A stretch of DNA of 64,000 nucleotides, from positions 288,001 to 352,000 of the forward strand of contig CAWBHS010000060.1 of the NCBI GenBank assembly GCA_963788655.1, given 5' to 3'. Position 1 is the first letter of the stretch. Each line of letters starts with the position of its first letter. Below, piece by piece: positions 36,557 through 59,867 of this stretch. The DNA comes from an uncultured Verrucomicrobiae bacterium. Its GTDB lineage: Bacteria > Verrucomicrobiota > Verrucomicrobiia > Limisphaerales > JAFGQR01. The position numbers and the translations under genes were made by a program. Below the pieces are notes generated by a model, which did no database searches, was not told the DNA's origin, and saw only the letters and a program-made list of their open reading frames with translations.

Positions 36557-36984
36557 GGAACAAAGAAATACGGGATTCGCCACTGGCTGCCAATCGGGAA
36601 AAGAGCTCAAACATTGGTGCCCCCCTTCGAACCTCAGTCGGTTTTGGAACGTCCGAATCCGCGGCGGCTATTGCCGGGTCAGTAACTTTCGTAAACCACA
36701 AACACACGAAGACACTGCCTAATCGCAACCCAAAATGCTTGAACAAACAGTTCAGACTCGGCAACGAACCGCTCACCGTGCCTTGGGCATCCGGTATCCG
36801 GTATCCAGCATCGGGCATCCAGATCGACCTTCCATCCTGACGACCGCGCCAGCCGACTTGACACCTGATTTCGCACTACCTACCGCCAATCATTTCCGTC
36901 CACGGCCACGGCTTCCCGCGCGGAACAGTTTCTTCCAGAACGGTTTTGACTTCTGAACCAAAAGAAGCTCCTATTGCTAATAAC

Positions 36985-38785
36985 ATGCAGTTGCACAAAT
37001 CATTTAGGATCCATTGCGTACGGGCAAAAATCGGGTGGCATGGGCTATGCCTGCTGTTGACCATTGGTCCGGCCATGGCCGATCTGGCCGAACCCCAGCG
37101 GGTCACCACCGATTTGACCCTGGCGAGCCTGATCCAGCGGGTATTGACCCACAACGAAACCGTCCAAACCAAGCTGCTGGAAATTGAAATCACCCGCCGC
37201 AAATACCGCGCGGAAAAAGGCATCTTCGAGCCGGAACTGGTACTGGATTACGAGCACCAGGACAACCAGCGGGAAACGACCTCGTTGGACTTCTTTCAAA
37301 ACCTCTCGCAAGTCCTGAATGAGCAAAACAACATCTACACCAGTGGCTTGGAATCGTTGGTGCCCACGGGTGCCAAGCTTCACCTGGGCTACACCTTGCG
37401 GGACTTGCGGAATAACTATCAAGGCCGCCTCAATCCGATGTTCGGCAATGGCGAGTTCGTCACGTTTGCCGGGGCCAGCCTGACTCAGCCATTGTTGAAA
37501 AACGCCGGCACCGCCGCGACGATGGCCAACATCCGCTTGGCAGCGGTGACGTCCGAAATCGCCTTCGAGGAGTACCGGCGCCAACTGATGCTCACCCTGT
37601 CCACGGCGGAAGCGGCCTATTGGAATTTGTATCTGGCGCAGGAACAAATGCTCTCCCTCAAACAATCCGTGGCCCTGGCGGAGAGCATCCTGAATGATAC
37701 CCAAGCGTCACTCAAAGTAGGCCGGGGCGCGGAATTGGACGTGCTGGAAGCGCAAGCGGGCTTGGCGTTGCGCCGTTCCAAGCAGGCGGAGGCGCGGCAA
37801 TTGTTTTTCGAAGCCGTCAATCGTCTGAATGCTCTTGTACTCCGAATCGATCCTCTCCGGCAACCGCACCGTGATTGCCGTCGATGAACCGCAAGTCACC
37901 AAAATACCGCTGACCTTTTTCGAAGGTTGGCAATCGGCCTTTGACTGGAACCCGGATTACCTGATCCGGCGCAAGCAGATTATCTCGGAGGACATCCGCC
38001 TGGCCTACGCGAAGAACCAACGGCTGCCGCAATTGGATCTCAAAGCCAGCTACGGACTCAACGGTCTGGGCGTGAGCCCGGCTGATTCCAACGACGATCT
38101 GTCCCGACAAGATTTCCCCTCCTGGTCCATCGGCTTGGAAATGCGGATTCCGTTGGGGGGCGGGATCAAAAGCCGAAATGAATTGGCGGCCTCCCTGCTG
38201 CGCAAGAAGCAAGCCCTGATCTCGCTCAAGGAATTGGAGAACCAGATTGCCAACGCATTGGACACTTCGTTGCACAAAGCGCGCAGCGCCCGGGACGACG
38301 TGCAGAACTACCGCACCGTGGTGGCGTTCAATGAGGATTTGCTCCAAACCCGCCTGGCCCAACTCAAAGCCGGCAAAGTCGAAAGCCGCAAAGTGCTCGA
38401 AGTGGAGGCGGCCTTGCTGGAAGCCAAAACGTCGCTGGCTGAAGCGAAAGTGAAATACAAACGCGCGCTGCTCGAACTGGAATTGATGCAAGGCTCGTTG
38501 TTACGCTCGCTGCACCTCGAATTGACCCAACGCGACTTGGAACAGCGCACCTCCCAACTGCTCAAGCGTGGTGAAGTCACCGACCAGCAATACCAGCATT
38601 TCCTGAAAGAAGTGCAGGCGGCTTATTGGGAAAAGCAGCCGCCCATGGACACCGTAACCGAAGACAAGGCGCGCCAGATGTTGCGCGATACCGAACTCAA
38701 ATCCGCCCCCGAAACCCAACCGGTCCAGCCAATAAACCCAGATCAATACCAGCGCGCTTTGGAACTCTTGCGCCAGGAAAAGTGA
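36985..38785 (+). CDS. TolC-family outer membrane protein, frameshift near 37830
   Basis: SLTQPLLKNAG, AYWNL and KNQRLPQLDL across ORFs 36946..37887 and 37829..38785. Confidence 0.88.
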
Positions 38786-38796
38786 AGGCGGGAGGT

Positions 38797-39015
38797 AAAT
38801 CCGAAGACCGAAATCCGCAATCCGAACGAAGCCCACAGTCCATCGTCCGAAACGAAATTTCAAGTTGTATGCACTCCAGAACTCACAACGTTTCTTCGCA
38901 CTCGTTGCGCCACCCGAGCAGTGGGCGTAACCGTTGGTTTCCATCCCGTGGTCAGGTCCTTCGCTTCTTCGGATTTCGGCCTTCTTCTGGATTTCGGATT
39001 TCGGCCTTCGGATTT
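38797..39015. repeat. Heptamer-based (AATCCGA) inverted-repeat element
   Basis: AAATCCGAAGACCGAAATCCGCAATCCGAACGAAGCCC (38797-38834) pairs with 38978-39015. A single arm is also at ~33163-33188. Confidence 0.8.
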
Positions 39016-39744
39016 CCCCTCCCCTTGTTGCTCGTCCTGGTGCTTGGCGCTGGCACGGTCAATTCCTTCTCCGCTTCGGAACCGGCGGCCTTCTCGGGTA
39101 TCACCGAACCGTTCTGGGATGTCATTTTGAGCGCGTCAGTGCCCGGCATCGTTAGCGCCAAAAAAATTCACGAGGGCGATTCCATCAAGGAGGGCGAGCC
39201 AATCCTGGAACTCGACAAACGCATGGAAGCATTCGAAGTCCACCGGCGCCAGTTGGTCATGGACGCCAAAAAGCGGGAGTTCGACAACACCCGGACGTTG
39301 TACGAAAACTCGAAAGGCGTTAGCAAAGATGAGTTGGACAAGGCGGAGCTGGAGTACCAAGTCGCCGCGGTCGAACACGACATGGCGGACGAACAACTGC
39401 GCAAACGCATCATTACCGCACCCTTTTCCGGAACCGTGGCGGAATTCTATCTCGACGAAGGCGAGGCCACGCAGGCTTACCAACCGCTGGCGCATTTGGT
39501 GGATACCAAACGTTGCTATTTCATCTGTAACATCGAAGCCAAAGCGGCCGCGGGCTTGAAGTTGAACCAAACCGTGAAATTGGAAATCGACACCGGCGCC
39601 GCTCCGGCAACTGTCCCGGCCAAAATTAGCTTCCTCTCACCGGTCGTGGACCCGGCCAGCGGTTTGCTAAAAATCAAGGCCCTGTTCGACAACACTGATG
39701 GCAAGCTCCGCCCCGGTCTGGCCGGTCGCATGATCCTCAACTAA
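38869..39744 (+). CDS. Efflux RND/HlyD periplasmic adaptor subunit
   Basis: Lipoyl halves, ITAPFSGTV, ISFLSPVVDPASG, LRPGL. Start uncertain. Confidence 0.88.
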   Translation: MHSRTHNVSSHSLRHPSSGRNRWFPSRGQVLRFFGFRPSSGFRISAFGFPLPLLLVLVLGAGTVNSFSASEPAAFSGITEPFWDVILSASVPGIVSAKKIHEGDSIKEGEPILELDKRMEAFEVHRRQLVMDAKKREFDNTRTLYENSKGVSKDELDKAELEYQVAAVEHDMADEQLRKRIITAPFSGTVAEFYLDEGEATQAYQPLAHLVDTKRCYFICNIEAKAAAGLKLNQTVKLEIDTGAAPATVPAKISFLSPVVDPASGLLKIKALFDNTDGKLRPGLAGRMILN

Positions 39745-39753
39745 CGCAACACC

Positions 39754-41622
39754 ATGGCGAGCCCGAATCCAATCCAAAACGGCGAGCATGACGGCACGCT
39801 GCAGTCGCTTAATGAATTGCGCCGGTTTGCCGGTCCGCCGCGCGATTTCTGGCCGCGTTACCTGGCGTGTCTGGGCCAACTTTGCGCGGCCAGCCGGGTG
39901 GTCCTCTTGGTCCGCAATGCCGCGGGTACCGAAGGCTGGAAAAAACTGGTCGAATGGTCGGCCGAAGGCGGGGCCGCAAAACACGGCGCGGTATTCGCCA
40001 GCCAACTGGAGACGGTGGCGGAACGTTGCGCGCAGGACACCCATTTCGTCAGCCCGCTGGCCACCGCGGCGGGCCGCGGCAATGGCGCTTTCATTCTCGC
40101 TGACAAAATCCGGCTTCTGCGCGCCGAAGAGCAATGCGTCGCGGTCTGCCTGTTGCCCGAAGCCAGCGAAGCCTCCGCCCGCGAAACCCTTTTACGCCTG
40201 AACCTCGCCGCGGACACGCCATCCTCGTACCAGGAAAACCTCGCCGCCCAGCAAGCCAAAGCGGACGTCGAAAAATTGGCGGGTGCCCTGGACCTGATGA
40301 TCCAAGTGAATGCCGAGAAGAAGTTCGTCGCCGCCGCCCTGGCGTTTTGCAACGGCCTGGCCACCCGGTTCGGTTGCGACCGCGTCAGTCTCGGTTGGCT
40401 GCAACGCGGCTACATTCGGCTGCGCGCGATCAGCCGCACGGAGAACTTCAACCGCCAGATGGCCGCCGCGCAAGCCCTCGAAACGGCCATGGAAGAAGCC
40501 CTCGATCAGGACGATGAAGTCGTTTGGCCGGCGCCGGAAGAAGCCACGGTGGTTGCCCGCGACCATGAAGCGTTTGCCCGCGAACAAAAAGTCGATTACC
40601 TCTGCTCGCTGCCACTGCGCGTCGATGACAAGGTGGTGGCGGTCCTGACGTGCGAACGCCAAAGCGCCGCCTTTTCCGCGGCTGAACTCCAGCAACTGCG
40701 GCTCTGTGCGGACACGGCCGCGCGGCGCCTGGCCGACTTGCGGCACTACGATCGCTGGTTTGGGGCGCGGTGGGCCACCACCGCCCGCGAACAGTTGGGC
40801 AAAGTCGTCGGCCCGGAGCATACCTGGATCAAAGTGCTGACCCTGGTGATTGTGGCGCTGTTGGCGGTCCTGTTCTTTCTGCGCGTGCCCTACCGGGTGG
40901 AAGGCAACTTCGTTTTGCGCAGCGATGAGGTGGCTTATCTGACCGCGCCATTCGACGGCTACATTGACAGCGTACCGGTTCGTCCCGGCATGGCCGTCAA
41001 GGCTGGCGATCCGCTGCTGCGTTTTAAAACCAGCGAACTCGAGTTGGAGGAATCCGCAGCGCTGGCCGACTGGAACCGTTACCAGCGCGAAGCCGAAAAG
41101 TCCCGCGCCGCTAATTCGCTGGCCGAAATGCGGATTGCCGAGGCCATGGCCAACCAGGCCAAAGCCCGGCTGGACTTGACGCGATACCGGATCAACCAAG
41201 CGGTCATCAAATCACCGTTTGCCGGTGTGATTGTGGAAGGCGACCTGCGCGAGCGTCTCGGGTCGCCCGTGAAACAGGCCGACGTGCTGTTTAAAGTGGC
41301 GCGCGTGGATACGCTGTATATTGAAGCTGAAATCAACGAACGCGACATCCATGAAATTATCGGCAAGCACACCGGCGAAATGGCGTTCGTGAGCCAGCCC
41401 CAGCTCAAGTTTCCCATCCGCATCGTGAACATCGAACAAGCGGCGTTTCCCAAGAACGAGAAGAACGTGTTCCAGGTCCGTTGCGCGGTCGAAGGCGGTC
41501 CGCAGCCCTGGTGGCGTCCCGGCATGAGCGGCCTCTGCAAATTCAACGTCGAAAAACGGACTCTCATCTGGATCGTCAGCCACCGCACCGTCGATTTCTT
41601 GCGGATGTTGTTTTGGTGGTGA
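39754..41622 (+). CDS. GAF domain + HlyD-family membrane fusion protein
   Basis: CDRVSLG, AMEEALDQD, TM segment, APFDGYI, SPFAGVIVEGDL, WRPGMSG, C-terminal LRMLFWW. Confidence 0.88.
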   Translation: MASPNPIQNGEHDGTLQSLNELRRFAGPPRDFWPRYLACLGQLCAASRVVLLVRNAAGTEGWKKLVEWSAEGGAAKHGAVFASQLETVAERCAQDTHFVSPLATAAGRGNGAFILADKIRLLRAEEQCVAVCLLPEASEASARETLLRLNLAADTPSSYQENLAAQQAKADVEKLAGALDLMIQVNAEKKFVAAALAFCNGLATRFGCDRVSLGWLQRGYIRLRAISRTENFNRQMAAAQALETAMEEALDQDDEVVWPAPEEATVVARDHEAFAREQKVDYLCSLPLRVDDKVVAVLTCERQSAAFSAAELQQLRLCADTAARRLADLRHYDRWFGARWATTAREQLGKVVGPEHTWIKVLTLVIVALLAVLFFLRVPYRVEGNFVLRSDEVAYLTAPFDGYIDSVPVRPGMAVKAGDPLLRFKTSELELEESAALADWNRYQREAEKSRAANSLAEMRIAEAMANQAKARLDLTRYRINQAVIKSPFAGVIVEGDLRERLGSPVKQADVLFKVARVDTLYIEAEINERDIHEIIGKHTGEMAFVSQPQLKFPIRIVNIEQAAFPKNEKNVFQVRCAVEGGPQPWWRPGMSGLCKFNVEKRTLIWIVSHRTVDFLRMLFWW

Positions 41623-43067: not shown

Positions 43068-43733
43068 TTGAAGCTGCACGCGCAGCTCCTGGCCGGAGAC
43101 ACCCATGCCGCCAATTTGATCGCCGAGTTTCTTCTGGCAAAGTTGATACGAAAAGTTCACGCCTATTTCCGAAGTCGGGACACCCAGTTAGTTTCCGACG
43201 CCGTTACCGATGCCCTGTTGGATTATATCAATAAGCCCCATAATTTTGATGCGAGCCACGGAAAAGGTTTGGGGTCGTTCCTTTTGCAAGAAGCCCAATG
43301 GCGCCTGGAGACACTTCAACGTTCCGAAAGACGCCGGGTCCGCCGCCAACAGGAGTTCAGCGCCGCGTGCCAATTCGAGATGGAATCGGTCTTGTCGGCG
43401 GAAAACAGTCAATGCGATCGCCTTCTGAACACGGATGCGCCGCTTGAAGAGCTACTTGCGCAGTGCGCGCAAGCCTTTTTAAGCCCGACTGATCACGCCA
43501 TCATCGAGTTGATGGCCAGGGGCACGCGGAAGACGGAGGACTTTGCCTCAGTCATGGGCTTGCGGCACCTGGAGTCCGACGCAAGGCGCAAGGAAGTAAA
43601 ACGCGCCAAGGACCGCATTTCGAAGAGGCTTCAACGTCAGATGCGGAACCTTGCCCGGAAGTATTTTGAGATTTCCAAAGAAAGTTTGTCGAACTTCGCC
43701 TTTGGCGGCGCATTAACAAGTAGAAGGCCATGA
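43068..43733 (+). CDS. ECF-like sigma-70 family protein
   Basis: Region-2-like DAVTDALLDY..P..FD..LGSFL and region-4-like FASVMGL..EVKRAKDRISKRL. Confidence 0.65.
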   Translation: MKLHAQLLAGDTHAANLIAEFLLAKLIRKVHAYFRSRDTQLVSDAVTDALLDYINKPHNFDASHGKGLGSFLLQEAQWRLETLQRSERRRVRRQQEFSAACQFEMESVLSAENSQCDRLLNTDAPLEELLAQCAQAFLSPTDHAIIELMARGTRKTEDFASVMGLRHLESDARRKEVKRAKDRISKRLQRQMRNLARKYFEISKESLSNFAFGGALTSRRP

Positions 43734-44003: not shown

Positions 44004-47000
44004 ATGGAAAGTGAGCTTATGAAATCAAACATACGAACCAGCCTATATGCGGCGTTGGCAGTATTAAGTGGCGGCGCCTTCGCGGCCACCCCCTTGGCCG
44101 CCTCTGCGCCAGTGGTGGTTGAGCGAGGCCCGAGCCACCGTGTTTGGCAGCGGACCACCTACGTGCAAACCCCCTCGGGGAAACGACTCCCGCGGGTGTC
44201 CCGCTACGTTGAACTGGCCACTGGCATGCATTACTGGGAGGATGGTCAGTGGAAAGAGAGCCGGGCAGAAATCGAGCTCGCCCCCGACGGAGCCGTCGCC
44301 CGCCGAGGATCGCACAAAGTGAGCTTCGCCCCGAACATCAACACCCGAGGGTCGATTGCCCTGGAAACCGAGGACGGCAAACATTTTCGCAGTCATATAT
44401 TGGGTTTGGCGTACACGGACGAAGCCTGCGGCCAGAGCCGCATGATCGCCACGATCAAGGATTCGATTGGGGAATTGACTCCGCCCAACCAGGTCCTCTA
44501 TCCCGACGCCTTCACCGATTACAGAGCCGATGTCCGGTACACCTATACGAAAGCCGGATTCGAGCAGGACATCATCCTGCGGGAGCAATTGGATTCTCCC
44601 GCCACCTATGGGATGAATCCAGAAACAACCCGCTTGGAAGTGTACACCGAGTTTGTGGAGGCGCCCACACCAATCGCAGTGCAGACCGTCGTGGTCGCCG
44701 AGGGAACAGACCCGCGAATTGCGCAGACTCTGCAGGAGCCGGACTTGGTGGATGAGCAATTGGACTTTGGCGCGATGCGGATGGGGCCGGGCCACGCATT
44801 CCCGCTGGAGGCGCGACCACAGATGCGCGATGAGGCGACGCCTACCGGCAAGCGTGGGAGCAGGCGCGAGGGGCGGCAGTTGCTCATTGAAAAAGTCGAG
44901 TATTTCCAGATTGCGCCGCAGTTGGACCAGTTGCCAAAGTCGGCGGCCGTGGCGGCTCCAAACGCAAGACGATGTTAGCCAGTCAGGGTAACACCAGCAG
45001 CACAATTGGCAGAAGCTTTCTGCCTGCCTCCCCGCCCGTTCGCATCGAAAAGCCCCAGATGCAACTGGCCCAGGCAGGACGCGCGGAAAGCGGGCTGGTC
45101 CTGGACTATCAGACCATGAGCAGTTCAAGCAATTATACCTTCCAGAGCCGGACTCACCTATTACGCCAGCGGCAGCGTGAATTTAAGCGGCACCACCACA
45201 ATACAAGGCGGAACGGTCGTGAAGTTCGGGCAATTGCACGCATCACCTTCCGGGGCCGATTGACTGCAGCACCAGCGCGTATCTGCCGGCAATCTTCACG
45301 GCCAAGGATGATGACACCGTCGGCGAAACAATTAGCGGGTCCAGTGGTTCACCAGCCAACTGGTATGGCTACCCTTTCTACCTGACGGGCGCTTCGGATT
45401 ACAAGCTGCACGATCTCCAATGCCGGTATATGACGAGGGCGTTCAGGTGATTAGCGCGGTTAGCGAGCTTTGAGCTGTCGGCATGCGCAAGCCGCAGCAG
45501 GGTTACATCGGCGTTCTGACTGAAAAAGCCCCGTTACCCTGCGCAACGTGTTGATTCGACAACGATCTCACCGTCGGCAATTCAATTGCGACGTCACTCG
45601 GCTGACGCATCGAGGTAGAGCAGGTGAACTTTTCATCAGTATCCGAACTTAAATACCATGGGGCTCCGGCACCTTGAACCTGACCAACACCCTGCTGATT
45701 GCAGTGACCAACGTCTGGTTTACTCGGGAAGCAACGTGGAAACCAACCTGGACGACACGGGCATCTTCCAAACCGTGGGCGCGGGCGCGCACTATTTGGC
45801 GGCAGACAGTGAGTATCGGGATGCCGGCACCACCAACATCAACGCTGATCTGTTGGCCGACCTCAAAAAGATGACGACCTATCCGCCGACGGAATTCACC
45901 AACAGCCTCATCTCCGAATCGGTAACTTGGAGCCCCCAAGCGCTCCGCGATACCGACACACCGGATTTGGGTTACCATTACCCACCGCTGGATTACCTGC
46001 TGGCAGATGTCACGGTGACCAATGCCACCGTGCTGGTAACCAACGGAGCCGTCATCGGCGTTGACGCTGCGGCGACCAATTGGGGCCTGTGCTTGGACAA
46101 CGGAGCGCTGGTGCTCAGTGAAGGGACACCATCGGCCCTCAACGTATTTGTGCGGACCCACTGCGTCCAGGAATTGCCCTGGGGCAACAGGACCAACGGC
46201 GCCCCCATGTTTGCCGATGTTTACCCGGCTCCCGACGTTTCCCCCATTACCAAGTTCCGGTTTACCGATTTTCCCATGCTCAATGGGACCTACCTGTTCA
46301 ATCAAAATCCTGATGAAGGATTTGTCGATCCGATGATCTTCCGGGATTCGCAAATCCGCGGTGGCTACTTCCAGACCTCGCCCGGCGTATCGAACGTCAC
46401 GATGGCGGTAACGAATACCCTGCTGGAACGGGTCAACACCACGCAAAACTCCAGTTTTCCAACCGTGTTGGAGTTGCGCAACTGTTTGTTCGAGGAAGGC
46501 TTGCTGGTGCTCACCAACGCTGCCGGCAGTTCGTGGAAGGCGACTGACAACCTGTTCGACAAGACCAGCGTAACGAACGGCGGCGGGGCCACCTTGTCCA
46601 GTAGCTACAATGGTTACGTGACCAACTACAGCCAACTGTATCCCTCCAGCGCCAACGACGTCATTTTGACCAACAGCACGTTGGATTTCGTGGTTGGTCC
46701 CTTGGGCGATTATTACTACCCAACCAATGGCGGGCTGCTGAGCACGTTGATCGACGCGGGCAGCATGAACGCCACCAACGCGGGCTTTTACCACTACACG
46801 ACGACGACCAACCAAGTCATGGAAACCAACTCGGTGGTGGACATTGGCTACCACTACCTGGCCGTGACGAACGTGGACGGAGTGTGGTTGCCCATCGACA
46901 GCGATGGGGACGGGCTCTCTGACGGCGACGAATTCTATAGCTATGGGACCGATCCTAATGATCCCGACAGCGACGACGATGGCATGATCGATCAACCCTT

Positions 47001-47046
47001 TGCGGTTTGGATCACCCGACCCGATCCCACGCACGACCTGCCTTAA
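44004..47046 (+). CDS. Large secreted protein (~1000 aa) with C-terminal Ca-binding DxDxDG repeats, broken by indels at ~44960-45660
   Basis: Signal peptide, VVERGPSHRVW N-domain, Thr/Asn-rich body, DSDGDGLSDGDE..GTDPNDPDSDDDG. Confidence 0.7.
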
Positions 47047-47099: not shown

Positions 47100-50000
47100 A
47101 TGAAAAATACGATTCAAACATCTTGGCGGCGCTTGGTTTGCCTCACCAGCTTAATGGCCGGTGTGCTTGGCTGCGGAGGGTCGCTGGTGGCCGCGCCTGC
47201 CGAACCGACCCTGCACGAACAGATTGCGCACGCCACCGACATGGGCGTGCCGTTGGTGTGGGTTGGAAGCGGAACCGGCGCTGAGGTGGCCGACCAGGCC
47301 CTGTGGCAGGCCTTCGGGCAATTGCGGACCGCAGGTGTCGAGGCCGGCGCCCAGGCCTTTGAGCAATTCACGGCGATGTTTCCTGAGTCGGGCTGGACAC
47401 CCGCCTTGCGGCTGAAGCTCGCCCAATACTATCGGCGGGGCGGTCGCTTGAGCCAGTCGTTGGCCCAGTGTCAGGCTGCCTGGATGGCCACAGCGGGTGA
47501 AAAAGCGCCGACGGCCAAGGCTTTGGCCGACGAGGTGTTATTGCTCTGGGGCCAAACGATGGGGGACTTGGGCCAGACCGCCGCCTTGGACGACTTGTTG
47601 GGCACGGTCGGGGACCGGGCGATGGCCAATATCCATTCGCAGCGCAAGTTCATCCTGCTGCGCAAGAACCTGGATGGCATGAAGTCGCGGTTGGCCGGGT
47701 TGAACCACTTCAAATGCGGCGTCGATGCGGTGGCGCAAATGGCCTTCAATACTCGGTTATTGATCGATCCATGTGAGGTGCTTAACGTGGCGGCATCGCC
47801 GGACGGTTTTTCGCTGGCGGACCTGGTGCGGCTGGGCCGGCGGTTGCGAATGGAACTGGTGGCGGTGCAACGGCTGGGCGGCAACGAACTGATCGTGCCC
47901 AGCGTCTTTCATTGGAAGCTCAACCACTACAGCGCCATCGTCGGCCGGACCAATGGCCTCTACAAAGTGGTCGATCCGATTCTGGGCGGCGTCCGGTGGT
48001 TGAGCGCCGACGTCATCAACGACGAAGCCAGCGGGTACTTTTTGGTGGGCCCAACGGCTGCCCTGCCGGCGGACTGGCGCCGGCTGGAACCGCAAGAAGC
48101 CAAGGGAGTCTGGGGCAAGGGGGGCAATGAAGTTGCGCCCCTGTCCAGTCCACCCCCGTGCGGAGTGCTGGGTTTAAGCTGTCCTTCCTGCAAGCTGGGC
48201 GGTCCCAGCTTTATCGCCAGCAACATTGGAGGCTGCGGGGGCTGCGGGGCCAGCGGAGCGATGACGAGTTTTTGGAGAGGCTATGAACCGATCGGCGGAA
48301 GCCCCAGCCCGGTCTTTGAGGAATCCTATGTTCCTCAAGCCCTGCTCAACACCGGGCCTTCAGGCATGCCCTCGTGGACGGTCGAGGAACCTTATATGTC
48401 AGTTTGGTTGGTGGACGAACCGATGCGCTACCACCCCAGCCGCGGACGGGACGTCAGCCTGAAGCTGACCTATCATGAACACGAAAGCCGGCCGGAGTCC
48501 TCCTCCATTTTCAGCTTTGGAACGGGTTGGAATGCGAACATTCTCAGTTACTTGCTCCTTGATGGATATAACGTCACCGCGTATGCGCCGGGCGGCGGGG
48601 AGTGGCGCTATTACGGTTCGGAGCATGTTTCCCCGGGGCCGGATTATTGGAGTTACAGCACCGTGAGCACCATCGGGACTTCTTACCAAATCGCTTTTCC
48701 CGACGGGACGGCGTTGAAATACGAGTTGCTTGTTCCCGACGGCCTCGGGTCCACCAACGCCTTTCTGACCCAGACCGCCGATCCGGCCGGATACGGCCTG
48801 AGCTTCTACTACAGCACCAACAACAACGTTGTCCTGCTGACCGAATTCGTCGATCGCAATAGCCAAACCAACACCGTCCGGTACGATGACACCCTTACCA
48901 CTCAGGTTTCGGAGGTGGAGAACCCGTTCGGCCAGACCGTTCAATTCGAGTATGACGAGGACGGATTACTAACCAACCTGACCGACGTGGTGGGGCTGAG
49001 CAGTTCGTTCACGTATTCGAATTACGACAGCGTGCCGCTGCTGGCAAAACTGACCACCCCGTACGGGGACACTCATTTTGACTACGTGGAGCCAGATGCT
49101 TGTCTTTGCTTTGGCGGTGACACCAGCGCCATCCACGTCGTCGAGCCCAATGGGGCGAACCATCTTTATGTCTATAAAGACAGTTCGACATTCGTGCCCA
49201 ATAGTTACGACGATGCGCCTGAGGGCGTGCCAGTAGCAACGAGCACTACTACTGCACTTGACGGTGGGCTGTGCAATTACAACATGATGTATCGTAATAG
49301 CTTTTACTGGGGGCCCAATCATTACGGCCTGCTGAGCACCACCAATGTGTCGGAGTTGAGCAGCAACGATTTGCGTATCGCCCGCCTGCGCAACTGGTTG
49401 CACGACCAGGAAAACGGCTCATTCGATCTCAGGGTTTCGGGCACCATTAACTTGGAACGGGAGGCAAGCCCAGATGGGGTTATCGAAGGCCAGAAGACTT
49501 GGTATGGGTAGACGCGCGACCCCGATCATCCGGCGCCGAATTGGGAAGGGGACAATTCCCGCCCGTCGTGGGTGGCGAGGGTGCTGCCCGACGGCCAGAC
49601 CCGCTATGCGTACCAGGAATTCAACGCGCGCGGCAATCCCACCCTGGTGGTGACCACCAATCTTTTGGGCAGTACCTCCCAGTGCGTCACCAATTGGTAT
49701 GCGTACGACGAGGACGGCATCGACCTGCTGTCCGTCACCAACCAGGCCGGGGTGCGGGTGGCGGCCTTTAACTACAACAGCAGCCACCAGGTGCTGAACG
49801 TCACCAACGCCTTGGGCGAGGTCACCACTTATACTCACAACGAGGACGTTCCGTTTACCAGCGTCAAACGCCCCAGCGGCCTGACCACCACCAACCTCTA
49901 CGATAACCATTACTGGCTCACCACGACCATCGACCTGGAGATCAACCGCACCAATACCTATGCTTGGACCAATGGCCTGGTGCATACCCACACCGACGAG

Positions 50001-52961
50001 CGGGGACTGACCACCACCAACACTTGGGACGCCCTGGGCCGGCTGACCCAGGTGGATTACCCGGATGGCACGTCCACCAAGTATCGTTACGACAAGCTTG
50101 ATCTGGCCGAACTCATTGACCGGCTGGGCCATACCAACAGCTTCACCTACAACGCCGTCCGTCAGAAGACTTCCGCCACCGACGCCGAAGGACGCACCAC
50201 CACGTACATGTACTGCGACTGCGGCTCGCTGGAATACATCACCAACGCCCTCAACGAAGTGACCGCCTTCGCCTACGACTACCTGGGCCGGCGCACCATG
50301 ACCTTCCACCCCGGCGATTACAGCGTGACCAACACCTACGACCTGGCCGGCCAATTGACCGCTGTGTCCGACGCGCAGGGCGGCACCACCAATTATTACA
50401 ACCTCCAGGGCTTGCTGACGGTGGTCAGCAACGCCTACGGCCGCGTTCAGCAGATTCTTTACGACGAAGACAGCCGGGCCACCAACATCGTCGATGCCAA
50501 CGGTGTGGCCCTCCAGCAGACCTTCGACGCCCTGGGCCGGTTGCGCACCCGCACCTACCCGGACAGCGGGGTGGAGAGCTTTGGCTATTCGGAGCGCGGG
50601 TTGGTGGCCTACACCAACCAATTGAGCAAAGTGACGCGCTACGGCTACGACGAAGCCCAGCGCAAGACCGCCGAAACCAACGCAAACAACGAAGTACTTG
50701 AGTTCACCTACAACGCCGCGGGCGATTTGCTGACGCTCACCGACGGCAAGGACCAGGCGACCACCTGGGCCCACGACGCGTATGGCCGGGTGACCAACAA
50801 GGTTGATGCCCTGGACAACACCGTGCTGGCTTACAGTTACGATCCGGCCGGCCGGCTGACCAACCGCTGGAGCATTGCCAAAGGCCACACCTACTACGCC
50901 CACGACTGGGCGGGCAACCTGACCAACGTGGATTACGCCGCCAGCGCGGATCTCCGGCTGTCGTACGACGCCTTGAACCGCCTGCAAAATCTGGTGGACG
51001 GCGTGGGGACGACCAGCTACACTTATACGGATTTGGGGCAGTTGCTGACCGAGAACGGCCCCTGGGACGATGACACGGTGACTTACGCGTACACCAACCG
51101 AATGCGGCAAAGTCTGAGCCTGGCGCAGGCCGGCGCCAGCGCCTGGGAACAGACCTACGCCTACGACGCCATGCGGCGGCTGACCACCACCACCTCGCCC
51201 GCGGGAGCTTTCGGCTACGCCTACACGGGAGTATCGAGTGGCACTTGGCCGGCGACGCTGGTAAAGAAACTCACCCTGCCCACCGGCGGCTACATCACCA
51301 ACGCGTTTGACTCGGTGGGCCGCTGGAACAACACCCGGCTTGTCAGCTCGCAAGGCGCGAGGATCAGCAAGACGCGGTGCGAATACAATGGAAATCAAGT
51401 CAACGCGATTTACCGTGACGAAAACACCCCGGACGAAGGTTGGATCAATTACGAGTACGATAACATCGGCCAGTTGCGGAAGACAGAAGACGATGGCCTG
51501 GACCGCCTGCATGAGCAATTTGGTTACGCGTACGATGCCGCGCACAACCTGCAACACTGGACCAACAACGCCCTGGTGAGGACGTTCAACGTCAACGCCG
51601 TGAACGAAGTGACGAACGTCACCCGCACAGGAGGGATCACCGTGGCCGGGTTCACCACCAGCACGGCGACAAACATAATGGTCGCCGAGGAACCGGCGGT
51701 GATTTTCTCGGACAAAACGTACTTGCGGACCAACGTTGGCGTGGGAGATGGCTGGGGCACGGTGACAGCGATTGCCCAGTCCGCCACGGGCCAGACCGCG
51801 AGCAATTCGATCACCGTCTATTTGCCCTTTTCGGTGGCCTTCGGCTACGACCTGAACGGGAACCTGCTCTCCGACGGGTATCGGGCGTTCGACTACGACG
51901 ACGAAAACCAACTGGTTCAGGTGCTGGTCACCAACGCCTGGAAGAGCGAGTTTGCCTACGACGGCAAGCTGCGGCGGCGGGTGCGCAAGGAATACGCCTG
52001 GCAAGGCGGCGGGTGGGTGCAGACCAACGAAGTGCATTACGTGTACGACGGCAACCTGGTCATCCAGGAACGGGACGGCAACAACGCGCCCGTGACCACC
52101 TACACGCGCGGCCTGGACTTGAGCGGTTCGCTGCAAGGGGCCGGCGGCATCGGCGGGCTGTTGGCGATGACGCATCCGCTGCCCGGCCTACCTCCGAACT
52201 ATTATTACCGGGCCGACCTCAATGGGAACATCGTGACGATGGTCAACACCAACGAGTTAATCGTGGCCAAGTACCTCTACGAGCCGTTCGGGAAAGTGAT
52301 CGCAATGAACGGCGCCATGGCGGGGCTGAACCGGTATCGCTTCTCCAGCAAGGAGGCGCACGAACCGTCGGGGCTGGTGTATTACGGCTATCGGTATTAC
52401 GAGCCGTGGTTGCAACGGTGGGTGAATCGGGATCCAGTTGAGGAGCAGGGTAACCTGTTCGAATTTGTACGCAACGATCCATGTGATCTACTCGATTCCA
52501 TGGGCTTAACGGTTTGGATTTGCGCCAGAAAATCGGAAAAACCGTCGTCGTTTCCTTTGGGAAACCACGTTTACTTCTACAACGATATGGCTTCGGCGGA
52601 GGAAAACAGGTCCTGCGGTATGAGCGCATCCTTGGGTAAGGGAAAACCTGGAAGCTCTTCAGATACGGGTCCACACACATTCGGGCAGGACTGCAAGCCT
52701 GTCACCGACGATACGGAACTCGGAGAGTCCATCATGCAATGCTGTTTTGAAACTGCCAATAAGGGCGTGTGGTTTCCGTTCGTGAACGACTGCCACAACA
52801 AGGTAAATAATTGTCTTAAGCACTTTCATATTAAGCCACCTCGCCATCCGCGCTTTGGCCCGCCCGTAATTATTGAGCACCCTCCTTATCACCCGCCAGT
52901 CAGGCCGCCTAGATGGCCGTATGGATTCACCACTACGACATACCATCCGATGCAATGGTGA
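47100..52961 (+). CDS. Rhs/YD-repeat polymorphic toxin with signal peptide, TPR-like region and C39 peptidase-like domain, frameshift near 49510
   Basis: RBS AGAAGGAG. KCGVDA..HWKLNHYSAI..VVDP, many YD repeats, core YYGYRYYEPWLQRWVNRDP, DSMGL junction, ~150-aa Cys-rich tip. Confidence 0.88.
50836..52421 (+). repeat. Rhs core segment duplicated at 53879-55464
   Basis: ~1.59 kb direct repeat at constant offset 3043, ending at ...TTGCAACGGTGG. Confidence 0.95.
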
Positions 52962-53015: not shown

Positions 53016-53876
53016 ATGCATGTACCTGGCACTGCATCACAAACAGGGGTTCGCCGCTTTGTTGTCTTGATTGCTGCTGCAATGTTCTTTGCTTCTGAAC
53101 CTCACGCCTATTGCAGCGACTTTTTCTACCTTGATTCAAAGAGGATAGATAAGCTTTTATCGGCGGCTGGCCTACCACACTATCACCCTGGTGTATCGCG
53201 GAACCAAACAGGAAATGAGCTTTTCCTAACCGAAATTACCAATAGAGGTACGCTCGCCATAATAGTGTCGGCACAAGGAATACGAAAGCAAGTACTGCCG
53301 GAGGTGGCTGCAGCGGTTGCGGACGATGGCCGGCCGATCTGCTCCATCATGGATCACACTCTAGTTTTTGCTACGGGTGAGAAAGTCCCTCTCTTGGCTG
53401 GAAGCCGCTGGGGATTTTCCCACGACCGGAAGTTCTTCTTCTACTTGCGAGAACTCCCCGCTGCCGGTAGCGTGTTTCAGACTGTTGATCCTTTGAAGCC
53501 GTTTGTTAAATTGCCGGTAGACTTTCTGCCGCAGAGGATTTTCACCCGCACTAATGAGATTCTCGTATTTGGTCGGAAATACGATGGTGGCCGCGCGCCA
53601 GGCGCTCTTACAGGGCTTGTTTTTGTGACGGGCCAAACAGTTCCTAAGTTGGCGAAGGAAATCGAGCTTTCTCGTTTTGGCGGAGTGTCGGACATGGACA
53701 GTGAGACTGGTCTGCTCTTGGTGGAGGGCAAGCGCGAGATGTTTAATACATGGGGAATTTTCGACCCGCACACGGGTAAGTATAAGCCGCTTGGCGTAAA
53801 GAAGGGTTACGGTTTCTTTTTGGAACCTGGATTTCGAAAGGATTTGGAAAAGCTGTGTGAGCCGAGCACTCAGTAA
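53016..53876 (+). CDS. Putative immunity protein for the first Rhs toxin
   Basis: Directly downstream of the toxin tip, lower GC, N-terminal signal-like segment. Confidence 0.65.
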   Translation: MHVPGTASQTGVRRFVVLIAAAMFFASEPHAYCSDFFYLDSKRIDKLLSAAGLPHYHPGVSRNQTGNELFLTEITNRGTLAIIVSAQGIRKQVLPEVAAAVADDGRPICSIMDHTLVFATGEKVPLLAGSRWGFSHDRKFFFYLRELPAAGSVFQTVDPLKPFVKLPVDFLPQRIFTRTNEILVFGRKYDGGRAPGALTGLVFVTGQTVPKLAKEIELSRFGGVSDMDSETGLLLVEGKREMFNTWGIFDPHTGKYKPLGVKKGYGFFLEPGFRKDLEKLCEPSTQ

Positions 53877-53878
53877 AC

Positions 53879-55923
53879 GTTACGACGCGGCCGGCCGGTT
53901 GACTAACCGCTGGAGCATTGCCAAAGGCCACACCTATTACGCCTACGACTGGGCGGGCAACCTGACCAACGTGGATTACGCCGCGAGCACCGACCTCCGG
54001 CTGGCCTACGACGGCTTGAACCGCCTGACAAATCTGGTGGACGGCGTGGGGACGACCAGCTACACTTACACCGATTTGGGCCAGTTGCTGACCGAGAATG
54101 GCCCCTGGGACGATGACACGGTGACTTACGCGTACACCAACCGTTTGCGCACGAGCCTGAGCCTGGCGCAGCCCGGCGCCAGCGCCTGGGAACAGACCTA
54201 CGCCTACGACGCCATGCGGCGGCTGACCACCACCACCTCGCCCGCGGGAGCTTTCGGCTACGCCTACACGGGAGTATCGAGTGGCACTTGGCCGGCGACG
54301 CTGGTAAAGAAACTCACCCTGCCCACCGGCGGCTACATCACCAACGCGTTTGACTCGGTGGGCCGCTGGAACAACACCCGGCTTGTCAGCTCGCAAGGCG
54401 CGACGATCAGCAAGACGCGGTGCGAATACAATGGAAATCAAGTCAACGCGATTTACCGTGACGAAAACACCCCGGACGAAGGTTGGATCAATTACGAGTA
54501 CGATAACATCGGCCAGTTGCGGAAGACAGCGGACGATGGCCTGGACCGCCTGCATGAGCAATTTGGTTACGCGTACGATGCCGCGCACAACCTGCAACAC
54601 TGGACCAACAACGCCCTGGTGAGGACGTTCAACGTCAACGCCGTGAACGAAGTGACCAACGTCACCCGCACAGGAGGGATAATCGTGGCCGGGTTCACCA
54701 CCAGCACGGCGACAAACATAATGGTCGCCGAGGAACCGGCGGTGATTTTCTCGGACAAAACGTACTTGCGGACCAACGTTGGCGTGGGAGATGGCTGGGG
54801 CACGGTGACAGCGATTGCCCAGTCCGCCACGGGCCAGACCGCGAGCAATTCGATCACCGTCTATCTGCCCTATTCGGTGAGCTTTAGCTACGATCTGAAC
54901 GGGAACCTGCTCTCCGACGGGTATCGGGCGTTCGCTTACGACGACGAAAACCAACTGATCGAGGTGCTGGTGACCAACGCCTGGAAAAGCGAGTTTGCCT
55001 ACGACGGCAAGCTACGCCGGCGGGTGCGGAAGGAGTATGCCTGGCAAAAAGGCGCGTGGGTGCAGACCAACGAAGTGCGCTACGTGTACGACGGCAACCT
55101 GGTCATCCAGGAACGGGACGGCAACAACGCGCCCGTGACGACCTACACGCGCGGTCTGGACCTGAGCGGCACGCTGCAAGGGGCCGGCGGCATCGGCGGC
55201 CTCTTGGCGATGACGCATCCGCTGCCGGGTCTGCCGCCGAACTATTACTACCGGGCGGACCTCAACGGGAACATCGTGACGATGATCAACACCAACGAGT
55301 TGATCGTGGCCAAGTACCTCTACGAGCCGTTCGGAAAAGTGATCGCGATGAACGGACCCATGGCGAGCGTGAACCGGTACCGTTTCTCCAGCAAGGAAGC
55401 GCACGAGCCGTCGGGATTGGTGTATTACGGCTACCGGTATTACGAGCCGTGGTTGCAACGGTGGCCAAACAGAGACCCCATCAACGAACCGGGGTTCAAA
55501 CTGCTCACTCGTAGCGGTGGAACAATCAACTGGGATGAGGAGAGGAATCTTTACGCCTTTCTTCGGAACAATTCCGTAAACAACGTTGATCCCTTGGGGC
55601 AATCTGTTCTCGCACCAGTGGCAGGTTGGATTGGGACTGACTGTGCAGTTCCTGATCCAACCGATGCTGCGTGGCCGAAGTGGGCCGTGTATGGCATCGC
55701 CATCTGTGCCGCAGCCGCAATCGACGCTTGTTTCACAACGCGCACCTATACCTGTCGGGTTTTTTGCCCCTTATTGCGACAGGTGGAAACAACAACGCTG
55801 AAGTGGGAACAGTGCAGGCCACCGGAACAGGAAAACCTATGCTGAAGCTTGTCGAAACGCTGAAAGGGCTGCGCGGAACGCAGCTCCTCAGGAACACGAA
55901 CGAAGCATTGTCAATGGAGGTAA
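53879..55923 (+). pseudogene. Orphan Rhs core with an alternative C-terminal toxin
   Basis: Starts mid-YD repeat with no own N-terminus. DPLGQ junction and a different tip, which spans shifted frames to a TAA near 55923. Confidence 0.8.
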
Positions 55924-56300: not shown

Positions 56301-56872
56301 CCGCAGGGGCTTTGCCAATTCTGTTACAAAACCGATAAGTGAGCGGGCTGTCCCGCACAAACGGTGAGAAGGAATCTAGCGCGCCTCAGGCCGGCGCGAT
56401 AGAAGGTCGGCCACCCGCGCCTGCCGCACAGCCCTCGCGCTCCCTCCTGCCGCTGCGGGTGCGGCATCCGGGCCACACCCTGCGCCCCCTTGCCCCCGCA
56501 GCGTGTGTCCCGGCTGCCGCTCCGCTACGTCGGTCGGCCAGGGCTGCTAGCGGCCCGCCGCCCCGAAAGACACCCCCGGCGGGCGCTCCGTGTCACGCTG
56601 GCTGCTAAAGGCAAAGGCAGCCTTCGCGCCACTCCGCGCAGGTGGCTGCACCAACGGCGGGCCAACCGGAATAGTGGCGCTCGCCGACTCGCGCCAGAGC
56701 TTCGCCAGTTCGGGCGTCGCGGTTGCAATCGTGGCGTCCTGGGTGTTCTGCGCGTTCCGGCCCTGCGTTCGCGAGTGAGCGCTCGCAACAGAATCGAATG
56801 CGCTGTCGATAAAGTGACAGGTTCAAAGTTGTTGACATGTTTTGCACCCTGATGCCAACCTCCCGCCACTCT

Positions 56873-57841
56873 ATGAGAATGGCACGGATCAAGATTCAAG
56901 GGCGCAGTGCGGTGTATCACTGCATGTCGCGGATTGTCGGGGGACAGGCTTTGTTGGATGACGTGGGGAAGGAGAAGTTGGTGGCCATCCTCGGGCAATT
57001 GGCTGCGTTTTGCGGCCTTGAAGTCATCACCTACTGCATGATGTCCAATCACTTTCATGTTCTCGTTCGCGTTCCGGAACAACAGAATCCCTCCGACCAG
57101 CAACTGATCGAGCGCATGGAAGCCTTGTACAGCAAGAAAAGCGCCCTGGTGCAATTAGCCCGCAACACTTTGGTGCAGCACGGCCGGATCGATCACGATA
57201 TTCGGCAATCCATGGTGGAGCGAATGGGGGATGTTTCCGCGTTCATGAAGGAACTCAAGCAGCGGTTCAGCCGTTGGTACAACCGACAATCGGGGCGCTT
57301 TGGCACGCTCTGGGCCGAGCGGTTCAAGAGTGTATTGGTGGAGGATCAACCGGGAGCGGTTGAAACCCTCGCCGCGTACATTGATCTGAATCCAGTGCGC
57401 GCCGGTTTGGTGGACGATCCCAAAGAGTATCGTTTCTGTGGCTACGCTGCGGCGTTGGCCGGCAACAAAGCGGCCCGAGCGGGATTGCTAAGCTTCCAAA
57501 AGAGCATCGACTGGAAGACCGGCGCTGCTGAATATCGAAAACGCTTGTTCGTGGGAGCGGGAGTCGCCGGAAGAAGCGATAAATTGGTTCTGGATCGCGA
57601 GCAGATCAAACGCGTGTTGTCTCAAGGCGGTGAGCTGAGCCAGGCACAAATCCTGCGTTTGCGCCTCCGACATTTAACCGATGGAATTGTGCTGGGTTCG
57701 AAGGCCTTCGTGAACGAAATCTTTGCGTTGCACCGCGACAAATTCGGCGCCAAGCGACAATCGGGAGCCCGGCCGATTCGCGGCGTGCCGTTGCGGGAGC
57801 TGAGCGTTTTGCGGGATTTGCGCGTCTCCGCCGTTAGCTAA
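56873..57841 (+). mobile_element. REP-associated tyrosine transposase (RAYT, HUH/Y1)
   Basis: YHCMSR, YCMMSNHFHVLV (HUH), GTLWAERFKS, YIDLNPVRAGLV. Confidence 0.9.
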
Positions 57842-57889
57842 GAGTTTACTGGGACCTTCCGTTTGAATCTTCGTTGCCTTTTTGAACCA

Positions 57890-59867
57890 GTAGAGTAGAG
57901 AGGAAAGCACGGAATGAAAGGCCCGAAAACCAATGACCGCCGCTTCCCTCTCCCTCGTCGAACCGGACATGGAGATTTCCCCCATCCGGCTCTCGCCAGT
58001 GTCGGCTCTTCCACAAAGCATTCACAACGCAACCAGTCCCAGATGGTCCAAGTGAGCATACAGGCTGACGCCCTCACGGGCTCGCCAACCCCGTTGGCTG
58101 CGACGTTGCAGATGCCGTCCCAACCGATACCGCACGAAGTGATTGAGCTGACGAAATGCCTTCCGCGGATAGCCCAACTTGAAGTAGTTGGACCAACCCC
58201 GCAGGTGACGGTTCACCCGTCCAATCAACTCCGGCATGGGCGTATGACTCTGATGCGGGTTGATCAACCCTCGCAACGCTTTCCGTTCCCGATCCATCGT
58301 TTTGCGCGACGGTTCCAGGTTCCAGTAACGCTGCGGCCGACCGTATTGATCGCGGTCATACCGAAAGGTGTAGCCCAGGAAATCCAGGCTCTGGCCCGAT
58401 TGCTTCAAATCCACGATCCGAGTTTTATCCCGGTTGATTTGCAGGTCCAGCCAGCCTTCCAGTTTGCCCTCGATCCATTCCCGCAACTTCGGACTGATGT
58501 AGCGAGCCATGACCACGAAGTCGTCCGCGTAACGGATCAGCTTCGCTTTGGCCCATTGCGCCGGTCCATCTCCTCGTTGGAAGAGGTGGTCGAACCAGTG
58601 CAAATAGACATTGGCCAGCAAAGGCGAAAGCACTCCACCTTGGGGGGTGCCCCGGTCGTTGCGTCGCACCGTGGGTGGTTGTCCCCCTGGGGGCGGTTCC
58701 ACCACCGGCGCCTTGAGCCATTGTCGGATCAGTCCCAGGACCGAACCGTCCACCACGCGCATCCGCACGCAAGCGATCAGCTTATCGTGGGGAATGCTGT
58801 CGAAGTAGCCAGCCAAATCCGCATCATACACCGCCGTTTGACCCTCCTTCAGGTGCTGTTGGATGGCGCGCAAGGCATCGTGCGCCGATCGTCCGGGCCG
58901 AAACCCGTGGGAGCAGTCTTCAAAGTCGGCTTCGAAGATCGGCTCCAGGATCAGCAACACCGCCGCTTGCACCACCCGGTCCCGCACCGTCGGAATGCCC
59001 AACGGCCGCAACTTGCCGTTGGCCTTCGAGATATACACCCGCCGCACCGCTTGGGCACGATAGGTTTTGTCCCTCAGGCTCCGTTCGATCTCGGACAGAA
59101 ATGCCGCTTCGCTTTCCGGCGTCGTGGTGATCTGTTCGATGCTCACTCCGTCCACGCCCGGCGCACCGTCGTTGCGCCGCACCGCGGCCCAAGCCGCTTG
59201 CAGCACGTCGGTTCGATACACCAAAGCGTAGAGACTGTAGAAGCGAAACCGCTTCTGTTGTTTGGCTTTCTGGCCCAGCTTCTGTCTCAGTTCCCGCAGG
59301 CTCGGCGGCAGGATCGCTTCCCGGAAGGAAAGTTCCTCCACCGCTTCTTCTGTTGTAGGAATGAACTCCATCCCAATCAGCTCCGGATTCCTCTGACTCG
59401 GCTTGACTCTGGCCAGGGCTCCTTGGCTCCCTGCCAACTTGATCGGCAGATCGACGCTACTATGAGCCCATCCGACGCCGCGATTCGGCCCCACCAGCGG
59501 TTATGGCTTCCCGCCAGGGGTTGTCCTGCGTTACAGGCCAGGACTCCGAACCGGGCCTCCCAAGTTCCCAGTGGTTCTTTCTGCGCGCGCTGTCTCCTCT
59601 CACCCCGGGGAGTCCGGTCGGTGCATGGGATCGAATCTTCCCGACCGATGCGGGCTTCACCACATCCGGCAGGCTGGCCACTCCCAGTTTTGTGTAACGA
59701 GGCCGAACCGAGTTCGCGGAACGCTACGGCTCGCGCATTGGCCTTCCCCAGCTTCAACGGGCAGGATCGCTCCCACCCGCTTAAGGGTCGGCTACATGAC
59801 TCTCGACCATTTATCATGGTTAACACGTTGCAGTTAACAAGAACCACCAAGCTTGCTTGGCGCTTTC
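57890..59867 (-). mobile_element. Group II intron (ribozyme plus RT ORF)
   Basis: Domain V GAGAGCCGGATGGGGGAAATCTCCATGTCCGGTTCG and domain VI ending CTCTACTCTAC at 57890. 5' boundary inferred by rejoining the flanks. Confidence 0.9.
58022..59371 (-). CDS. ltrA: Group II intron reverse transcriptase/maturase without an endonuclease domain
   Basis: [53 protein letters not shown]. No HNH tail. Confidence 0.95.

Follow-up and report, generated by a model that had tools for sequence, protein, structure and literature searches.

A gene at positions 47100-52961 (+) of a 64,000-nucleotide stretch of DNA (hereafter the window) from an uncultured Verrucomicrobiae bacterium bears on the question of how an Rhs capsule can be armed and opened when no type VI secretion system (T6SS) takes part. 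This gene encodes an Rhs protein in which a TPR block, a C39 peptidase domain, and a motif resembling a double-glycine leader precede the YD shell. The preliminary description of this DNA had proposed that the peptidase cuts in cis at that motif and releases the Rhs shell after Sec export, without a T6SS. We conclude that the TPR-C39 front end probably cleaves itself between Lys340 and Gly341, in a family of Rhs capsule proteins that are likely Sec-exported polymorphic toxins. The family has a characteristic domain order, an intact triad, a conserved leader register, and swappable tips, and T6SS genes are absent from most of its carriers.

A C39 peptidase domain stands ahead of the Rhs shell

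The gene starts with an ATG at 47100, and its frame of 1,953 codons contains one in-frame TAG. The encoded domains follow in the order hydrophobic N-terminus, TPR block, C39 domain, leader-like motif, Gly/Pro/Cys linker, YD shell, two-aspartate core, and variable tip. The signal peptide, TPR-like stretch, triad, motif, Cys/Gly linker, and YD repeats of the preliminary description are all found where it had put them and, as it had also noted, no PAAR or VgrG family match is visible on the protein or on the neighbors scanned. The predicted Sec signal peptide (residues 1 to about 32; 47100-47195, +) has an uncharged hydrophobic 11-mer (residues 12-22, mean hydropathy 2.2) along with a weak lipobox-like LGC. 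The YbgF/CpoB-like TPR block (residues 59-200; 47274-47699, +) is modeled as helical hairpins with predicted local distance difference test scores (pLDDT) above 90; it has a TIGR02795 match at E 0.049, and its model matches TPR structures with Z of ~11-13, e.g., 2xev with Z 11.8.

Is the domain that follows (residues 201-319; 47700-48056, +) a C39 peptidase? The Pfam profile Peptidase_C39 (PF03412) matches residues 206-316 at E 2.5e-4 and 21.3 bits, slightly below the cut-off of 22, and a precomputed PF03412 match is present in 11 of 25 long homologs. Among solved structures, the best sequence match is LahT 6mpz (E 0.087 with the single sequence, 2.3e-4 with a profile), which is also the top match of the predicted fold (Z 13.3, root-mean-square deviation [rmsd] 2.7, 118 residues aligned), with PCAT1 and ComA coming next. 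C39-fold toxins are structural neighbors too (9l5u, Z 11.9; 8ssm, Z 11.1). We used two models, one built from a 100-sequence alignment (mean pLDDT 91.5) and a second one of 803 residues. The triad of Cys206 (FKCG; 47715), His276 (LNHY; 47925), and Asp292 (VVDP; 47973) is intact, and its residues are retained in 256, 256, and 253 of 257 homologs, respectively (176, 176, and 175 of 177 in a smaller set). The papain-like C39 (PEP) fold that had been suspected is thus borne out by the Pfam profile, the LahT sequence match, and the structure match. Instead of the ABC transmembrane and ATPase parts of a PCAT/AMS exporter, a YD shell comes after the C39 domain, which would work like the PEP domain of these exporters without being a member of them.

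A leader-like motif follows the peptidase domain

Just after the C39 domain, at residues 329-342, we find the motif LEPQEAKGVWGKGG. It is not part of the PEP fold, since the structural alignment to PEP domains stops at residue 319, and the spacer between protease and leader is short and constant at about six residues. The pattern, ExxxVxGxG in the preliminary description, is kept in 235 of the 253 homologs that extend far enough (4 incomplete ones were dropped), versus 0.04 expected by chance per 60-residue window. To the detriment of our reading, such a count can be inflated because some homolog searches used queries that included the motif; the 80 loci of a contig scan, which were not chosen on the motif, account for only 2 of the 18 misses. 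Column by column, W/F/Y occupies position 326 in 169, L/V/I/M position 329 in 163, E position 333 in 143, and V/I position 337 in 162 of 175 sequences; G339, K/R340, and G341 are found in 167, 147, and 149 of 174, respectively, and position 342 varies freely.

Where would such a leader be cut? When the motif is laid without gaps on the ComC leader (sequence from PMC5481443; this and the other papers cited by PMC number or preprint identifier are represented by excerpts, to which our statements about them apply), W326 falls at -15, L329 at -12, E333 at -8, A334 at -7, V337 at -4, G339 at -2, and K340 at -1, with matches at -15, -12, -8, -6, -4, and -2. Because this register puts K340 at -1, the predicted bond is the one between Lys340 and Gly341. 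Gly(-2) is present in 247 of 248 non-gap homologs and Gly(+1) in 226 of 247. Gly342 is unconserved, the conserved core being G-[K/R/M]-G, and we therefore rejected cleavage behind the trailing Gly341-Gly342. It is this core that survives of the motif originally described, not its final GG.

Evidence that the motif docks in the peptidase comes from the models and from co-evolution. Both models have a helix at residues 331-335 (-10 to -6), and the PCAT1 leader has one at -10 to -4 (PMC6959990). In the two models, pLDDT is 95-97 up to Lys340 and 44-57 thereafter. A mean-field co-evolution analysis of 257 sequences ranks, among all pairs, Tyr313-Leu329 3rd, Leu239-Val337 9th, Ala255-Ala334 15th, Leu239-Leu329 40th, and Tyr313-Val337 71st. 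Leu239 aligns with LahT Ala61 and lies as many residues from the catalytic Cys as PCAT1 Ala55 does, and Tyr313 corresponds, by alignment end offsets, to LahT 137 and PCAT1 135. PCAT1 Ala55 binds the leader at -7/-12, and LahT 137 and PCAT1 135 contact -4 (PMC6959990). Co-evolution ties the motif to the predicted leader-binding groove, and covariation and model confidence together favor the docking on which the original proposal depended.

The built-in leader of double-glycine type, as predicted from conservation, model helix, pLDDT, and co-evolution, would run from Trp326(-15) to Lys340(-1) (48075-48119, +), which places the predicted cut between 48119 and 48120. It shares L(-12), E(-8), a hydrophobic residue at -4, G(-2), and the helix with double-glycine leaders and lacks L(-7) and a small residue (G/A/S) at -1. 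The motif is leader-like but not a canonical double-glycine leader.

In some relatives without the peptidase, a predicted signal peptide ends near the predicted cut

The family also has relatives that lack TPR-C39, and this genome contains two of them. We took 20 of ~25 such matches plus three more and found a C39 match in none of these 23. Three of them fit a post-cut profile strongly (17-21 bits, the others scoring <10); this profile covers 11 residues after the P1' position and was derived from 78 of 232 post-cut segments. In those three, a signal-peptidase-type site, assigned by a simple rule and not by a trained predictor, coincides with the Gly341 position in two cases (offset 0) and is displaced by one residue in the other (offset -1). 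L136 has AQA followed by GYP, which is the most frequent post-cut start, yet scores poorly on the profile. The register finds no such support elsewhere: 20 of the 23 have no usable register, their N-termini being longer or unrelated, and in L094, L129, L130, L133, L137, and L140 an unrelated domain of 100-300 residues stands in place of TPR-C39. Since such relatives hold an unrelated domain at that place, the front end itself appears interchangeable. In the C39-less paralogs L126 (contig C48, 39296-44404, minus strand) and L093 (contig C95), the signal peptide is joined straight to the linker, and behind the C48 paralog lies a series of short modules that look like tips, each of which has a hydrophobic leader of its own.

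The family is widespread, probably Sec-exported, and mostly found without T6SS genes

How common is this architecture? Among 1.84 billion cluster representatives (50%-identity level), the TPR-C39-motif region has 1,491 matches at E 0.001 and 1,112 at 1e-10; the sequences that we analyzed from this search are the best 150 of the 1,491. A pattern scan of contigs, in which 182 of 209 stretches were confirmed, returned the 80 loci mentioned above, with hosts including Verrucomicrobia, Rhizobium, Mesorhizobium, Reyranella, Methylomicrobium, Accumulibacter, Fibrobacteria, Acidobacteriota, Vulcanimicrobiota, and others; the named loci closest to this gene are from Verrucomicrobia. A search of the genome contigs with one sequence alone recovered no relative, whereas the alignment-based scan that gave these 80 loci did. 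Of 251 genomes from the host's own order, 81 have a match at 1e-20, a count that takes in C39-less forms. P0007 and P0020 are C39-Rhs forms of 2,300-2,600 residues in which LysM domains are present as well.

An uncharged hydrophobic N-terminal stretch is present in 129 of the 142 homologs with a usable start (13 proteins were excluded because their N-terminus was too short), versus 7 of 695 shell control segments, and we infer that the family is exported by Sec. Because only 7 of 142 have a lipobox-like pattern, we rejected the idea that family members are generally released from a lipid anchor. The release of the Rhs shell that had been envisaged is amended accordingly: the part shed would be the TPR-C39 cap, not a membrane anchor.

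The suggested independence from T6SS is supported for the family, since TssC is found in only 4 of 56 carrier genomes hand-picked from the host's order (3 of 40 high-quality ones); among proteobacterial carriers it is found in 2 of 5. Matches to TssC, Hcp, and TssF are absent from the host's own genome (86% complete), in which secretins are matched eight times. The VgrG-like match of this genome was not linked to this gene, because it lies in a baseplate-type locus on another contig. This locus, L128 (contig handle C39, 140000-158000), has baseplate and split VgrG-related genes and looks like an extracellular injection or tailocin locus.

Most tips carry an odd number of cysteines

As in Rhs polymorphic toxins, YD repeats and a two-aspartate core occur here together with variable tips, a downstream small gene, and orphan modules. 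The shell (48363-52505, +) matches PF05593, TIGR01643, and TIGR03696 (E 3.5e-20), and structure comparison matches its fold to RhsA 7q97 and other Rhs shells. It ends in the two-aspartate core, whose motif we read as Arg1773, Asp1778, and Asp1799. Ahead of the shell lies the disordered Gly/Pro/Cys linker (residues 341-421; 48120-48362, +; pLDDT <50 for 345-421), the predicted new N-terminus. Linkers of the family are 22% Gly and 14% Pro, contain at least one Cys in 192 of 194 cases, and in 79 of 97 have a Cys at one shared column immediately ahead of the shell.

We cut the tips from 99 full-length members, after dropping 18 without a core match and 3 duplicates; two or three of those retained look mis-cut. 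The number of Cys is odd in 86 of the 99, exactly one in 51 (15 expected), and zero in 3, and for seven other residues the count is odd in 41-53 of the 99. When the tips are grouped, 76 of the 88 resulting clusters are odd in Cys. Control Rhs tips from gammaproteobacteria, some of which may be Sec-type themselves, are odd in 11 of 22, one being mis-cut (Fisher p 4e-4 versus the family). Both tips in the window (52506-52961 and 55600-55845) are odd in Cys, and the sparsest members have one linker Cys, one shell pair, and one tip Cys. This odd tip-cysteine pattern is newly observed in this analysis and suggests a disulfide tether. Two points argue the other way: in 46 of the 86 odd tips, linker plus shell Cys are even in number, often with a third nearby Cys (424 or 479), and the odd Cys of this copy's tip may be catalytic. 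Whole-chain Cys parity does not agree with a simple disulfide from linker to tip in every member, which was set aside as a general rule.

This copy's variable C-terminal tip (52506-52961, +) has 151 aa, 7 Cys, and a His ... NDCHN pattern, which presumably recalls permuted papain-like enzymes. It has no Pfam match, and a homolog search found none at E 0.01 among 25 candidates; relatives are present at the ends of Rhs fragments in L096 (E 3e-11) and L002 (E 1e-8). An Atlas comparison gave a weak IcsB lead at 0.88, the look-alikes being unnamed proteins of 133-145 aa. Of 37 tips scanned, one passed a toxin family cut-off (HNH, L068), a low yield that tells against the toxin reading; judging from sequence, the tips are presumably toxic.

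Proposed mechanism and alternative explanations

After Sec export, the TPR-C39 unit would bind its built-in leader in the protease groove, in cis, and a single cut after Gly339-Lys340, ahead of Gly341, would shed the cap. The remaining shell would start with a free Gly and the disordered Cys-bearing linker, and the tip would be freed when the C-terminal aspartyl core makes the second cut usual for Rhs proteins. The unpaired tip Cys would form a disulfide, most simply to the conserved linker Cys, and the cut tip would stay tethered until reduced, the large adhesin-like neighbor described below serving to target the toxin. More broadly, this might be a large, so far undescribed class of needle-free, two-part Rhs toxins in which a cut by a bacteriocin-type protease at Gly-Lys/Arg|Gly unmasks an unstructured entry peptide, the aspartyl core releases the tip, an unpaired Cys obligatory in all tips holds the toxin to that peptide by a disulfide until the target cell reduces it, and a variable adhesin chooses the target; we offer this wider proposal tentatively and regard it as rather doubtful.

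What weighs against self-cleavage at this bond? P1 is Lys or Arg in 201 of 235 homologs (K in 126, R in 75; M in 16), and the sites of PCATs are GG, GA, or GS, with a very narrow cleft (PMC6363468, PMC6959990). In the co-evolution analysis, Lys340 has no strong partner (best rank 76). Position -7 is mostly Ala/Gly/Thr, not the Leu that LahT and PCAT1 need; the residue facing it is larger (Leu/Met in 240 of 257), which perhaps offsets the loss of Leu(-7). The Gln six residues before the catalytic Cys is absent, with Pro in 162 of 177 at the equivalent column; in LahT this Gln is 4.3 Å from the oxyanion, His may do its job, and it is apparently dispensable (PMC6363468). The idea that a C39 domain cuts this motif is supported by fold, conservation, and docking; what does not agree with it is the predicted P1, Lys340 instead of a small residue. 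The motif could then be an uncut pseudo-substrate in the leader groove, its Lys/Arg at P1, outside the GG/GA/GS rule and facing a narrow cleft, blocking hydrolysis, and it would fold or silence the protease until displaced. Co-evolution and pLDDT indicate binding, not cutting, and Cpi1 inhibits the C39 toxin Cpe1 by occupying the same surface (PMC12136450). We nevertheless consider a pseudo-substrate unlikely: Gly(-2) and Gly(+1) are what a threaded scissile bond needs, C39-less relatives begin at the +1 position, and no other substrate is in view. Also improbable in our estimate is that the protease cuts the motif in trans or one residue off, after Gly339 or Gly341. Some genomes hold several family members, so that cleavage in trans is conceivable, and a cut after Gly341 would give a small residue at P1; however, the contacts of Val337 with Leu239 and Tyr313 fix Val337 at -4, the signal-peptide mimics among the C39-less relatives indicate Gly341 as the first residue, and the spacer between protease and leader is short and constant.

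Could the C39 domain act on another protein instead, either as a second toxin like Cpe1 or StbD or by maturing the neighboring adhesin? C39-fold toxins are among its structural neighbors (9l5u, 8ssm), Tox-PLC39 tips are known (PMC3482391), and an adhesin-like neighbor is common. Those toxins are, however, C-terminal and have their own immunity gene, whereas here the domain is a constant N-terminal part. Moreover, since C39-less relatives (C95, L094) retain a similar upstream neighbor, that neighbor does not need the protease, and we regard action on another protein as very unlikely. Finally, the capsule might be an adhesin or signaling container, not a toxin, with the cap cut for some other purpose; most tips have no toxin family match, and the neighbors are adhesin-like. 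An intact two-aspartate core, the 88 unrelated clusters among the 99 tips, the HNH nuclease tip, and the orphan 3' modules here and in other loci make this extremely improbable. Self-cleavage of the TPR-C39 cap at the built-in leader remains the reading that we prefer.

This copy carries an in-frame stop

Codon 804 is a TAG (49509-49511, +) that interrupts the shell, with the frame intact on both sides. It lies beyond the part of the gene covered by the preliminary description, which had missed it. Most relatives are open over 1,500-2,100 codons and the frame of this copy is interrupted, so that as assembled it would yield only the first 803 residues and no full-length toxin. The stop may be an assembly error or a nonsense mutation marking a pseudogene. 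Recoding of TAG was rejected, because TAG ends 372 of 1,892 long open reading frames (ORFs) in the genome and there is no suppressor tRNA among its 49 tRNAs. Breaks are many in this assembly: a crude paralog test that had no control genome flags 169 of 913 loci for joins resembling frameshifts and 151 for internal stops, and genes in pieces are also seen around this gene and on contigs C62, C68, C89, and C95. The argument made here for the family is independent of this copy.

Neighboring genes include a large exported protein and an orphan Rhs module

Upstream lies the gene of a large exported partner (44004-47046, +), in at least three ORFs, with a TSP3_bac end (PF18884). Large exported neighbors with TSP3_bac, LamG, Ig, fn3, or RCC1 domains are found in 20 of 81 loci, this window included, and the genome has four further loci related to the 44004-47046 gene, some of which adjoin other Rhs genes. 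Alphaproteobacterial loci have instead exported proteins of 330 residues with no Pfam family (17 loci), and in 13 loci a 90-residue exported single-YD protein lies directly upstream of the C39-Rhs gene (e.g., L032, 7602-7871), with the 330-residue proteins ahead of it. No T6SS or type I cluster recurs among the neighbors in the 81 loci. The adhesin-like neighbor is likely a targeting partner, as we infer from its position and domains.

Downstream lies a candidate exported immunity gene (53016-53876, +; 286 aa, hydrophobic N-terminus), proposed on position only; it has no family match and no relative among the sequences compared. Next comes an orphan Rhs 3' module (53857-55845, +) with a TIGR03696 match, which is 94.6% identical to the shell over 258 aa and ends in a different tip of 81 aa with 7 Cys.

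Several other genes share the window. At 36946-41622, there is a TolC-like gene in two overlapping ORFs together with two HlyD-family genes (one with GAF), followed by unrelated sequence after 41622; these genes were dropped as a dedicated exporter because no such neighbor cluster recurs in the 81 loci. An ECF-type sigma factor-like gene (43068-43733; Sigma70_r2 E 0.08), a possible regulator, lies shortly upstream of the partner gene. An upstream promoter scan found no more than chance. An IS200-like transposase gene and a minus-strand group II intron-like reverse transcriptase, recognized from its YADD motif, occupy 56837-59494, with another copy on contig C68.

Discussion

How does this architecture relate to known systems? 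With LahT (6mpz), PCAT1-CtA (6v9z), and ComA (3k8u, 5xe8) it shares the fold, the triad, the leader register at -12/-8/-7/-4/-2, the short helix, and the groove residues. Unlike PCAT/AMS exporters, it has no ABC transporter, its C39 domain comes after a signal peptide and TPR block, and a single polypeptide carries first the protease and then the leader, which has Lys/Arg at P1 and Ala/Gly at -7. T6SS Rhs effectors (RhsA 7q97; TseI, PMC8765631) have the same YD shell, aspartyl core, variable tip, and second cut ahead of the shell, but here there is no PAAR, prePAAR, or VgrG link. Moreover, the N-terminal cut of RhsA falls inside the shell and its catalyst is unidentified according to the excerpt of PMC8765631, whereas here a separate protease domain stands in front.

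The teneurin-like BiTLP (9ifo; PMC13018210) also has signal peptides, a YD shell, and two cuts, and a disulfide (C719-C2216) that links its enclosed tip with the N-terminal side is akin to the tether proposed here. In place of TPR-C39, BiTLP has FN-plug and NHL domains, with no C39 mentioned in that excerpt, and its tethering Cys lies before the cut, whereas here it lies after the predicted cut. Our 803-residue model contains no FN-plug or NHL propeller, and its 9ifo matches are weak (rmsd 20).

C39 domains that cut their own chain are known from toxins. In StbD-CT, the domain self-cleaves in cis at a GG upstream of itself (bioRxiv 10.64898/2026.05.07.723447), and StbD-CT and Cpe1 (PMC12136450) both cut in cis in a redox-dependent manner; in these proteins, unlike here, the C39 domain is the C-terminal toxin and the GG is upstream of it. 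That polymorphic toxins carry N-terminal processing peptidases such as ZU5, PrsW, or the PVC metallopeptidase is an established idea (PMC3482391), and these toxins and S8-PTS (PMC9424270) likewise combine a constant N-terminal or adjacent peptidase with variable tips. In the excerpt of PMC3482391, however, C39 appears only as the C-terminal toxin Tox-PLC39, in contrast to the constant N-terminal domain described here, and S8-PTS has its peptidase in a separate gene, with no mention of C39 in the excerpt. Giant Omnitrophota proteins have C39 domains near their start that are proposed to cut them (bioRxiv 10.1101/2023.11.21.568195). Literature searches, which covered mainly non-subscription papers, returned no account of an N-terminal C39 (TPR-C39-leader) on an Rhs protein, an architecture that the supplement of PMC3482391 could list.

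Taken together, these findings suggest from sequence and models that the protein is likely an Rhs polymorphic toxin with a self-removing TPR-C39 cap, in which the concept of a processing peptidase is known and its C39-leader version on an Rhs protein appears to be new. For the question of how Rhs capsules work without a T6SS, the family provides a protease that can be named, one bond at which it is predicted to cut, and a disulfide tether, likewise predicted. It occurs in over a thousand sequence clusters, including those of cultured hosts that are not pathogens (Rhizobium, Mesorhizobium, and Methylomicrobium), where these predictions are directly testable. If they are true, C39 specificity would extend to Lys/Arg at P1, and the TPR-C39 unit would be a compact protein cap that removes itself.

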